Below, piece by piece: positions 56,958 through 63,766 of a stretch of 64,000 nucleotides of DNA. The translations under genes and the position numbers were made by a program. Under the pieces are notes generated by a model, which saw only the letters and a program-made list of their open reading frames with translations, ran no database searches and was not told where the DNA came from. Source of the DNA: an uncultured Phycisphaerales bacterium (lineage in GTDB: Bacteria; Planctomycetota; Phycisphaerae; Tepidisphaerales; Tepidisphaeraceae); contig CAVWLP010000003.1 in NCBI GenBank assembly GCA_963755915.1, forward strand, positions 832,001-896,000, in the 5' to 3' direction. How positions within the stretch are numbered: position 1 is the stretch's first letter; every line of letters begins with the position of its first letter.

Positions 56958-57040
56958 TTTTCTTGGCGCTCTTGGCGTCTTGAGCGAAGCGGGCGGTTAT
57001 AAGATTTTTAACCGCCAAGACGCCAAGAGCGCCAAGAAAA
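56958..57040. repeat. ~80-bp palindromic repeat, empty copy 1 (IS target family)
   Basis: TTCTTGGCGCTCTTGGCGTCTTG-AGCGAAGCGG-GCGGTTA..TAACCGC-CAAGACGCCAAGAGCGCCAAGAA. Confidence 0.95.
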
Positions 57041-59379: not shown

Positions 59380-59459
59380 TTCTTGGCGCTCTTGGCGTCT
59401 TGAGCGAAGCGGGCGGTTATAAGATTTTTAAACCGCCAAGATGCCAAGAGCGCCAAGAA
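59380..59459. repeat. ~80-bp palindromic repeat, empty copy 2
   Basis: Nearly identical to 56958-57040 (C>T at 59442, one extra A in the loop). Confidence 0.95.
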
Positions 59460-60826: not shown

Positions 60827-61184
60827 ATGTGGGAGGTGGAATATACGGACGAATTCGGCCAGTGGTGGGATGCACTGACTGACGCCCAACGAGTCGCGGT
60901 CGCGCGGAGCGTCGAGTTGCTTAAGAAGTTGGGCCCGGCATTGCCCAGGCCGCACGCCGATACGGTGAAGGGCTCGCGGCACCCTAATATGAAGGAACTT
61001 CGCTGCCAATGCGGCGGCAAACCCCTTCGAACATTCTTTGCCTTCGATCCTCGCCGATCTGCAATATTGCTCATCGGCGGCGACAAGACGGGCGATCGCC
61101 GCTTCTACAAGCGAATGATCCCCATTGCCGATGACCTTTATGACACTCATCTGTCCGAACTTCGAAAAGGAAGGGTTGATGTGA
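60827..61184 (+). CDS. RelE/HigB-like (Gp49-type) toxin
   Basis: WEVEYTDEF, GPALPRPHADTVKGS, MKELR, FAFDPRR, GGDK; likely true stop TGA 61182-61184 if one A of the 61165-61168 run is spurious. Confidence 0.8.
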
Positions 61185-61522
61185 TGGCCGGCCACCACAA
61201 ATTCAGCGAACTTCGGGCGCGGATGTCCGCCAAGTCCCGTGCCCGCGCCGGCACGGCGCAAGAGGATATGTCCAAAATGCTCCTGGCCGAAATCCGTAAG
61301 CTTGCCGGGCTGACACAGGAGCAGCTCGCGGCCCAGCTTGGTGTGAAGCAGCCGAGCCTTTCACAACTCGAATCGCAGCAGGACATGCAGATCAGCACCC
61401 TCAAGCGGATTGTCGAGGCGCTCGGCGGTGGATTGGAAATCGTCGTCACCCTCCCCGGCAGGCGTATCTCCCTGAGCCAATTCAAGGATGGCCGGGGACG
61501 CAGACGCAGCAGCGCGGCTTAG
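61184..61522 (+). CDS. XRE-HTH antitoxin (HigA-like)
   Basis: LAEIRK..LTQEQLAAQLGVKQPSLSQLE..DMQISTL; ATG 61184 in a TGATG overlap. Confidence 0.8.
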   Translation: MAGHHKFSELRARMSAKSRARAGTAQEDMSKMLLAEIRKLAGLTQEQLAAQLGVKQPSLSQLESQQDMQISTLKRIVEALGGGLEIVVTLPGRRISLSQFKDGRGRRRSSAA

Positions 61523-61578
61523 TTGTGTCGGGGAAACTGAGGACAGAACCCTCCATTTGACTCATGCGTCTTTTGCAT

Positions 61579-61640
61579 TTCTTGGCACTCTTGGCGTCTT
61601 GAGCGAAGCGGGCGGTTATAAGATTTTTTAACCGCCAAGA
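61579..61640. repeat. Left part of palindromic repeat copy 3, interrupted by the IS
   Basis: Matches the empty copies up to ACCGCCAAGA (61631-61640), then IS sequence begins. Confidence 0.93.
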
Positions 61641-61751
61641 AACTATGAAGCCGAGCCTTTCTCGGGACGTGAACGGGGTCAAAATGCCCCAAGTATGAAC
61701 GAGCGTACCGCGTAGGTCGCTCAAACGTCTTTTTTGAGAAAGGACTCGGCA

Positions 61752-62795
61752 ATGCGAATTCTCGCTTTGGACCTGGGAAAGAACAAGAGCGTTTTTGTGG
61801 ATTATGTCACCGGCGGTGGAGAAAGAACGTTCGGCAAGATCGGCACCAATGCCCACGAGGTGCAAAAACTACTCGAGCGGGTGCGTCCGGATCGACTGGT
61901 CATCGAGGCCGGTCCGGCGGCAGGATGGGTTTGTGATCTGGCGGAGCGGAACAATGTTCCCGTCCAGGTGGCCAATGGCAACGATGAACGCTGGCGCTGG
62001 AAGACGGTGAAGGAGAAGAGTGATCGTAAAGACGCGCTGAAGATGGCGGCGATGTCGGAGATGGATTCGCTGCCGACGGTGCACGTGCCCAAGGCATCGG
62101 TTCGGCAGTGGCGTTCATTGATTGAATACAGACACGGCCTGGTGGATCGCCGCACGGCGCTCAAGAACTCGATCCGATCAATCTACGAGCGGCAGGGTTT
62201 GTATTTGCCCTCGGCGACCAAGGCGTGGACGAAAGCGCGACTGGAGGAAATGAGGAAGGAAGCAGCGGCCGCATCGGCGGAAGATCTGTGGCTGTTTCAG
62301 ATCGGTTGTGAGGTGGCGCAACTGGAGCACCTGGAGAAGCAGATCGAAACTGTCGAAAGCAAGCTTCAGGAGTTGGGCCAGGCCAACAAAGCGGTGAAAC
62401 GATTGCAGGAGGTGCCCGGCGTTGGTCCGCGGCTGAGCGAGGCGGTGGCGGTGATCATTGATGATCCCAGGCGATTCAAGAATGCACGTCAGGTGGGATG
62501 TTACGTGGGTCTGACGCCGCGGCGCTGGCAGAGCGGCGACAGCGATCGCCAGGGGCGGATCAGCAAGGCAGGCAACGCGCTGCTGCGGGAGTTGCTGGTG
62601 GAGGTGGCGTGGCTGGGGGTTCATCGCAATACGTGGATGAAGGACGTGTACGAGAGGGTTCTACGTGACAGCGAGAAGCGCAAGAAGATCGCGATTGTTG
62701 CGGTAGCCAGGAGATTACTGGTGAAGCTGTGGGCGATGCTGCGGGACGGAACCCGATGGAGAGAACCCCAGCGATCGCTGACGGCGGCCACTTGA
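61752..62795 (+). CDS. IS110-family DEDD transposase/recombinase
   Basis: GAAAGGA RBS; ALDLGK (D), VIEAG (E), KSDRKDA (DD), VPGVG, GLTP..QSG (Ser), GRISKAGN, AVARRL; frame intact. Confidence 0.95.
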   Translation: MRILALDLGKNKSVFVDYVTGGGERTFGKIGTNAHEVQKLLERVRPDRLVIEAGPAAGWVCDLAERNNVPVQVANGNDERWRWKTVKEKSDRKDALKMAAMSEMDSLPTVHVPKASVRQWRSLIEYRHGLVDRRTALKNSIRSIYERQGLYLPSATKAWTKARLEEMRKEAAAASAEDLWLFQIGCEVAQLEHLEKQIETVESKLQELGQANKAVKRLQEVPGVGPRLSEAVAVIIDDPRRFKNARQVGCYVGLTPRRWQSGDSDRQGRISKAGNALLRELLVEVAWLGVHRNTWMKDVYERVLRDSEKRKKIAIVAVARRLLVKLWAMLRDGTRWREPQRSLTAAT

Positions 62796-62942
62796 AAATC
62801 GAAAAGGCGATGACTGTCCCGACAAGTCGGTACAGGCGATGGAGTATCTCCCCTCCGGAAGACACCGTGTCAGAAAGCCGTTGTCTTCTGTGCAGGGGAT
62901 TGAGTAGAGTTGAAGTGAAGTGGAATTGACGCGTTCGTGCAG

Positions 62943-63095
62943 GTTGAATGAGCAAGGCCAGACCCCGGTTGGCGTCTTAAGCTTCAAAGCTTGCCGCTAA
63001 GAATAGGGCTGGCCATTTGTACAGTTGAATAGGCCCGCCGCCAGGCGAGAGCACTGAATAGAAGGCTCACCCAATCGACCGCATGAGCGATCAAC
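62943..63095 (+). ncRNA. Predicted bridge RNA / seekRNA (ends approximate)
   Basis: Stem GGCCAG-A-CCC (62956-62965) / GGG-CTGGCC (63006-63014) encloses an internal loop with TTGGCGTCTT (62969-62978) and CCGCTAAGA (62994-63002), matching the two halves of the target; ATAGAAG (63058-63064) matches the IS right end plus core. Confidence 0.8.
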
Positions 63096-63121
63096 GCCCC
63101 TTGACAAGGCTCGGCTCATAG

Positions 63122-63143
63122 AAGACGCCAAGAGCGCCAAGAA
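63122..63143. repeat. Right part of palindromic repeat copy 3
   Basis: AAGACGCCAAGAGCGCCAAGAA followed by TTCAGA, as in copy 2. Confidence 0.93.
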
Positions 63144-63211
63144 TTCAGAAGCCATTCAACTCATTGGTTTTAAATCTCTGCGCTCTTTGCGGTGTCCAGC
63201 GCAGCGGGCGG

Positions 63212-63766
63212 TTAAACTTCGCCGGCGGCGGACTCCTGCTCTTTGCCTTTGGGGACAAAATCAAATTGGTATTTTTCTCCGAGGTGCTCGCGGGTCATGT
63301 GGATGATTTCCTGGGTGTGGCCGCGGAAGTGGGAGATGGTGTTGGTGATGGCGGCGAGGACGGTGGTGTCAAAGCCCTGGATTCTTCGGGCGGAAATAAG
63401 GTCTGTGGCGGTGAGGCGGGAGAGGATTTGGTCGGCTTCGATTACGGTTGATTGGAGGAGGGCGAGGATCTCGGTTTTGGGGCGGTTGGAACGGTCGGAA
63501 AATTCCTGGGGGCGATTGCGGATGTCCTTTTGGTTGCCGACGCCGGCGATGAGCCATTGGCGGAGGTTGCCGGAAAGGTGGAGGCAGAGGTTGGCGATGC
63601 TGTTCATCTCGGGGCGGGGGCGGTGCCAGAATTGCTCTTCATTGAGTTGGGAGGCGCAGTGGTCGATTTTCTGCAAGCCTTCGGAAAGGGTTTCGCGCAT
63701 GGCCGCTTTAAACGAGCGGCAGAGTTCATTGACTGCTATAGAATCTGGGGTTTTTGCATCACTCAT
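63212..63766 (-). CDS. DinB/DUF1572-family protein
   Basis: NSIANLCLHLSGNLRQW, RNRPQEF, SHFRGHTQEI. Confidence 0.85.
   Translation of the reverse strand: MSDAKTPDSIAVNELCRSFKAAMRETLSEGLQKIDHCASQLNEEQFWHRPRPEMNSIANLCLHLSGNLRQWLIAGVGNQKDIRNRPQEFSDRSNRPKTEILALLQSTVIEADQILSRLTATDLISARRIQGFDTTVLAAITNTISHFRGHTQEIIHMTREHLGEKYQFDFVPKGKEQESAAGEV

Follow-up and report, generated by a model that had tools for sequence, protein, structure and literature searches.

The window analysed here, a 64,000-nt stretch of DNA from an uncultured Phycisphaerales genome, carries in its last 2.4 kb an intact insertion sequence (IS) of the IS1111 type (61640-63124; 1485 bp, including one copy of the core; the features of the element are all given on the + strand). 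Its ends were set by comparing occupied with empty sites, and a 4-nt overlap at these junctions leaves the exact crossover ambiguous within this genome. The left subterminal inverted repeat (61645-61659) begins 5 nt inside the left end; the right-hand block (63106-63124) consists of the matching repeat (63106-63119), a right-end tail of 3 nt (63120-63122) and the core AG (63123-63124). Fourteen positions match between the two repeats, the left one having an additional base.

Between the ends lies a gene for a DEDD recombinase of 347 aa (61752-62795), with an alternative TTG start at 61734 and Pfam matches to PF01548 (E 2.9e-10) and PF02371 (E 2e-24). The closest solved chains are those of ISCro4 (9t56) and IS621 (8wt6), and the serine motif aligns with both. 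With residue numbers counted by hand from the translation and the alignment to the solved chains, the acidic positions come out as D7, E52, D91 and D94, and the serine as S261 (motif coordinates throughout were likewise read by hand off the numbered sequence). The protein has the combination that marks the IS110 family: an N-terminal DEDD/RuvC-like domain and a C-terminal PF02371 domain with a serine/threonine-glycine motif. Three further marks are those of the IS1111 group: inverted repeats in the 7-17 bp range with short terminal extensions beyond them (5 nt on the left, 3 nt on the right); a longer non-coding side downstream of the gene (329 nt at the right end, 62796-63124, vs 112 nt at the left, 61640-61751); and a single specific target with no duplication past the core, as seen at 9/9 copies and at the empty sites. 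Since these marks agree with the descriptions in PMC11187229 and PMC11208160, the element is assigned to the IS1111 group of the IS110 family, all of whose sequence-level hallmarks are present.

A BLAST search of the element against the genome finds nine copies, all at 100% identity, and nothing besides these full copies and a shared hairpin (discussed below); no orphan copies of the RNA were found in it. Left and right junctions are identical in 9/9 copies, all of which stand in one 15-bp site. In the window, the left target half (6 nt) and the core dinucleotide AG (61638-61639) occupy 61632-61639, in the right arm of a REP-like palindrome, and the right target half follows the element at 63125-63131. 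The target thus lies in one arm of a palindrome made of 8-9-nt units, which recurs in the window: the exact 15-bp target stands uninterrupted at 57012-57026, and again with one mismatch (59442) at 59433-59447. Genome-wide there are 22 empty exact 15-mers, where composition predicts 0.02. The palindromes of this family, with tandem 8-9-nt units in their arms, are at 56960-57038, 59380-59459 and 61579-61639 with 63123-63143; a related family is present in a Phycisphaerales relative.

In one related element (L054), a flanking tandem repeat keeps the uninterrupted site, and there the overlap is exactly AG. Because this empty site leaves exactly AG, a core of AG on the top strand and CT on the bottom strand is supported, in keeping with the bottom-strand CT of the target as it had originally been read; IS621 also has a CT core, which here is on the strand opposite the top-strand AG. 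Two other candidate joints were set aside: an empty site with both copies of the 4-nt overlap has no match in the window, the true empty site having one copy, and an extra string resembling the right junction, with one mismatch, is a chance match inside a gene. In public sequencing runs no clean empty-site or circle-junction joint was seen. A joint in run X1 that skips 1503 bases is a different repeat copy, carrying 75 other letters; the DNA runs with full cover may derive from the source sample.

Downstream of the recombinase gene, 62926-63094 is predicted to fold as a single structured RNA domain of 169 nt (MFE -68.9 kcal/mol, z -4.18, with 0/200 shuffles as good), a length that fits the 148-172 nt given for "long" seekRNAs in Table 1 of PMC13604230. 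In the predicted fold, the long helix that closes the domain (62926-62953 with 63065-63094) surrounds a three-way junction whose arms are a target stem-loop-stem and a hairpin, the donor-side module, at 63032-63054.

The fold is conserved among relatives. RNAalifold, applied to a structure-blind MAFFT alignment of ten relatives (46-100% recombinase identity), recovered just 11 pairs, so the structure was written by hand and then scored by pair counts: 81.0% of cells are paired, vs 26-45% with slid partners, both-side changes are found in 13/20 pairs, and 0/500 shuffles reach any of these measures. A covariance model built from this alignment gives 26 matches in 44 sources, with 18 of the 44 lacking a match; ten of the matches are the training sequences, and the other 16, beside recombinases, come from nine further distinct sequences outside the training set. 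This search was made over the window and related loci, with one match in the window. An alignment of 19 distinct sequences was fitted to the model and hence leans towards it; in it 87.1% of cells are paired and 18/20 pairs show compensatory change, including 4/4 in the donor-side hairpin. The model leaves out a possible fourth helix (62949-62953 with 63065-69), which is predicted for the clade of the window element but was not lined up by MAFFT. In a permissive-threshold Rfam search of 61400-63400, the best matches are at chance level and far under gathering scores; an IS1111-type model may be absent from Rfam 15. Two contigs from RNA libraries overlap the region, one identical over 62755-62959 (X9) and one from a ~90% relative over 62927-63125 (X20). 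They are short, show neither ends nor strand and could reflect DNA carry-over, and we take them as a weak sign of transcription.

The arm at 62956-63014 is where the target would be read. Its outer stem (62956-62961, a bulged A at 62962, and 62963-62965, paired with 63006-63014) and its inner hairpin (62979-62983 with 62988-62992) both show compensatory changes, and between them lie two candidate guide strands. The 5' guide (62969-62978) is the exact reverse complement, 10/10, of 63122-63131, a stretch that runs from the final base of the right end through the core into 7 nt of right flank. On the other side of the loop, the 3' guide (62994-63003) equals left flank plus core in the same sense: 62994-63002 matches 61632-61640 at 8/9, the odd position (62998) having U for the C of the target top strand, which would place rU opposite dG of the bottom strand as a U·G wobble. 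Guides of 9 and 10 nt, overlapping by 4, give the target its 15 bp. In all of this the original prediction proves accurate, from the placing of stems and loop strands to the exact and near-exact matches and the target of about 15 bp. As expected of a seekRNA, the loop strands of the predicted structured RNA would pair with opposite target strands and overlap on the core. The two A residues that come after the 3' guide proper (63002-63003) are also the first two bases of the left end, a handshake-like position; both the AA and the start of the left end are nearly invariant, so that their agreement is consistent with a handshake and no more.

For the free RNA, the prediction is that the two loop strands pair together, since the target directly repeats a 6-nt unit; the "internal loop" would then be mostly closed until opened by something. 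Taken from the window alone, the guide match is suggestive rather than decisive: a reverse-complement match of at least 10 nt to the reconstructed site arises in 10/2000 mononucleotide shuffles of the 310-nt non-coding stretch, and elsewhere in the element (1266 nt) site matches reach no more than 8 nt in the same sense and 7 nt in reverse complement. The case for the guides is therefore carried by comparative data.

If the loop strands are guides, they should co-vary with the targets, a check that had been proposed with the original prediction. They do so in about a dozen related elements, some of them outside the covariance model, and there are exceptions. For seven elements with both flanks known, a permutation test gives the highest score to the true assignment of guides to sites; 2/5040 permutations reach it, namely the true assignment and one that swaps two sister elements, each of whose flank strings contains both sites. 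For elements outside the model, the expected flanks were read from the guide columns first and the junctions inspected afterwards: the guides match both flanks in G300, in G043 and in both subtypes of G344, and in L028 the match holds over the four flank bases present on the contig. The exceptions are of several kinds. The left guides of L055 and L059 match the flank partially, the 5' guide of L053 matches with an offset of 1 nt, and the target arm of L024 was not resolved. In L061-L063 (43-44% identical, model E 0.003) one guide is found in three copies with three different right flanks, and no match of these flanks to the guide was found.

The most informative comparison is with an element present in four copies (L016-L019) in an uncultured Phycisphaerales genome, whose recombinase is 91% identical to that of the window. 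Its RNA differs at 8/129 aligned positions, three of which (62975-62977) are in the 5' guide; all of its copies (4/4) stand one repeat unit further along the same type of palindrome arm, and their right flank matches the changed guide 10/10. Another relative, with a 90% identical recombinase (L052), has both the window's guide and the window's site. Each site type stands unused beside the other element's insertions: in the window's genome the type used by L016-L019 has 19 exact copies, 0 of them occupied, and all nine insertions have the other junction. Relative to the window's guide, the altered guide of L016 pairs one base farther out from the scaffold, a register shift of 1 nt that could reflect either a flexible register or a shifted crossover point. 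With guides three letters apart and sites one repeat unit apart, the window element and its 91% relative form a natural pair on which a specificity swap could be tried for IS1111-type systems, a type that has received less study than that of IS621. A second natural retargeting pair is found within genome G344, where two subtypes (L027 vs L041 and L048) are 96.7% identical, have different 3' guides and have correspondingly different left flanks.

On the donor side, the strand 63058-63064 (ATAGAAG) equals 63118-63124, that is, 5 nt of the right end and the 2 nt of the core; being of top-strand sense, it is predicted to pair with the bottom strand. A 7-mer equal to right end plus core recurs at the right junction in all relatives whose contig includes the right end, running through six states of a variable base and the core (AG, GG or TG), so that the candidate right-end guide picked out in the original prediction covaries with the sequence it would read. 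The base after the 7-mer, read by eye, is the first right-flank base in 9/12 distinct elements and resembles the handshake positions described for IS621 in PMC11208158; the exceptions (the window, L016 and L053) make up one clade.

A guide for the left end is harder to make out, and the doubt that the original prediction expressed about a second donor guide was justified. The junction strand 63015-63031 contains a weak candidate with mixed support: 63021-63026 is complementary to left-end bases 61641-61646 at 5/6, with a mismatch at 63022 in the window, leaving 4 nt (63023-63026) that stop short of the core. The complementarity extends to 6 nt in L016, L024 has two compensatory changes in the candidate guide, and L057 has one compensatory and one disruptive change; in G300, G043 and G344 there is no left-end complementarity at this position. 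Of the bispecific RNA originally proposed, the part that reads right end and core is supported and the part that reads the left end is weak or absent; the bispecific interpretation is thus only half shown for the window element.

One possibility raised by this asymmetry is that the RNA is a target seeker alone, with the protein recognizing both ends by way of the subterminal inverted repeats and 63058-63064 a conserved end-like motif that pairs with nothing. The lack of support for a left-end guide favors this, and the left end, being nearly invariant among relatives, offers no covariation by which such a guide could be recognized. There is also a precedent in ISEc11, for which PMC11187229 describes an 82-nt short seekRNA with target matches as sufficient for transposition, and re-targeting as needing donor-flank changes. 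Against it are the six states through which the 7-mer tracks right end and core, and the IS621-like handshake pattern of the base that follows (PMC11208158). We consider this possibility unlikely, if still a serious one.

A second possibility is that the loop strands derive from a piece of the REP target, captured for example by an old imprecise excision or a nested insertion, and that the fold is an ordinary structured 3' UTR or terminator. The target is a palindrome of short units and related strings are common (443 occurrences of its 8-nt unit vs 255 expected), and a 10-nt match is found in 0.5% of shuffles of this sequence. However, in relatives whose targets are unrelated, the two corresponding loop positions match those elements' own flanks; the stems change in a compensatory way and the loop keeps its length; and there is no T-run terminator. 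Capture is contradicted by the guide-flank covariation, as far as the sequences compared here can tell, and we give it very little credence. Hardly more credible is direct binding by the recombinase of single-stranded or cruciform DNA at the right end, in place of RNA: the stems would form in DNA too, but G·U cells occur often in the helices (at one pair, 16/17 sequences have U·G), and the opposite strand would show these as A·C; folding is better for the + strand than for the - strand (z -1.92, 11/200 shuffles as good); and the experimentally studied relatives use RNA (PMC11208160, PMC11187229). Because of the many G·U cells and the better z-score of the + strand, the data point to an RNA read from that strand.

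The interpretation that we hold with high confidence is that the window contains an active IS1111-type IS encoding a bridge/seek RNA of ~170 nt (62926-63094) 3' of its DEDD recombinase, with two target guides and a donor strand. Family hallmarks, fold and guide-flank covariation all support the original proposal of an RNA-programmable IS110-family orthologue with a re-codable loop. In the mechanism we envisage, the arm at 62956-63014 would present the two guide strands, overlapping on the core, and the strand 63058-63064, in the three-way-junction module, would pair with the element's right end and core. By analogy with IS621, ISEc11 and others, the RNA is presumably made and bound by the recombinase, the intermediate is presumably circular, and the chemistry at the core is presumably shared. 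The recombinase-RNA complex would then bring the circularized element up to the chromosomal site, where strands would be exchanged at the core; insertion would be into one arm of a REP-like palindrome, with the core as the sole duplication.

A more elaborate version of this model can be suggested tentatively, and we would not rate it as probable. In it, the RNA specifies one donor side (right end and core, with a handshake base for the first right-flank position of the target), the protein reads the left end via the long subterminal repeat, and the target loop slips along the REP units, its guides inhibiting themselves. The three-letter change in the L016-L019 guide, with its one-base shift of register and its insertion site one repeat unit away, would be an instance of slipping, and the closing of the window element's two guides on each other would be the self-inhibited state. 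If true, this would amount to donor recognition that is half RNA and half protein, together with a simple evolutionary route to retargeting, neither of which we found described for IS1111 elements.

Under the favored interpretation, the window element belongs to a kind of system already known since 2024, of which it is a clear natural example. Publications of that year (PMC11208160, PMC11187229) already cover the mechanism, the RNA's location downstream of the gene in IS1111 members, retargeting in nature and reprogramming by experiment, and the first of them predicts bridge RNAs in 93% of catalogued IS1111 elements. The nearest counterparts are the seekRNAs of ISEc11, ISPa11, ISKpn4 and ISPst6 (Siddiquee et al., 2024; PMC11187229), with which the element shares the size class of the recombinase (330-350 aa), subterminal repeats and a long downstream non-coding region. 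Their seekRNAs have two short matches overlapping in the target, the top-strand match 5' of the bottom-strand match, and the order is the same here; the structured domain of the window RNA is sized like their "long" form. The window element differs from them in host phylum and in target, and is known from sequence alone; its closest named relative is an uncultured Phycisphaerales MAG. ISEc11 and ISXne4 show natural retargeting between close relatives, as do the window element and L016, but in the latter pair it consists of a three-letter change and a one-unit move in the same palindrome, and not of replacement of the whole guide region.

With IS621 (Durrant et al., 2024, PMC11208160; Hiraizumi et al., 2024, PMC11208158), the element shares a DEDD and serine recombinase with an alignable serine motif, guides on both sides of a loop that address opposite strands and both cover the core, CT on the strand bound by the 3' guide, and guide-adjacent bases that match the other DNA partner (the handshake positions). 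In contrast to IS621, the RNA is in the right end and not the left, and its strand order is mirrored relative to the gene, as reported for IS1111; considered on the other strand, the window RNA has the IS621 layout, with a 5' guide of about nine bases including the core and a 3' guide of core followed by handshake bases. Two further differences from IS621 are on the donor side: the donor-side bases are in a three-way junction and not a simple internal loop, much as the donor-binding bases of many IS1111 members are in a multi-loop (Durrant et al., PMC11208160), and a single donor guide is clear. The subterminal repeats are also long. ISPpu9 (PMC12288879) and ISPpu10 (bioRxiv 10.64898/2026.03.19.712850) of Pseudomonas putida are likewise multi-copy in REPs with a small RNA adjoining the recombinase gene; the window element belongs to a different subgroup and a different host.

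The known mechanism of these systems is not altered by the window element. What it offers is an intact and apparently recently active RNA-guided recombinase in a little-studied phylum, with nine identical copies and with guides, core, ends and empty sites that can all be read directly from the sequence.

Several other features of the element and its surroundings may be mentioned. A perfect sigma-70 -35 consensus hexamer is found at 63101-63106, and in the same place in most relatives; the first eight left-end bases (61640-61647) are nearly invariant, and in a circularized element the two would stand ~19 nt apart. The hexamer is a candidate half of a promoter created at the circle junction, and the spacing would fit the junction promoter described for the family. 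In simple scans of 61560-63200, no sigma-70-like promoter and no intrinsic terminator were found.

Between the recombinase gene and the guide RNA there is a hairpin (62850-62898) that is common to unrelated IS21-family elements and may be terminator-like or a processing site. It recurs at about 43 other places in the genome, with 81-86% identity: 40 copies are at the 3' end of the ATPase gene in two IS21-family elements (9 and 31 copies), one more is inside a variant of those elements, and two are solo, one of these at the end of a host gene and followed by a T-run resembling an intrinsic terminator. Among relatives of the window element its placing differs: in L053 it directly follows the stop codon, and in L059 it lies close to the right end.

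Upstream of the element, 60827-61522 is a single open frame of 231 aa with a Gp49/HigB-like toxin domain and a helix-turn-helix antitoxin-like domain, suggestive of a toxin-antitoxin pair that has been fused or is read through. At six places (G000 C2 and C3) there is a second IS110-family recombinase, with 35% identity across the C-terminal domain.
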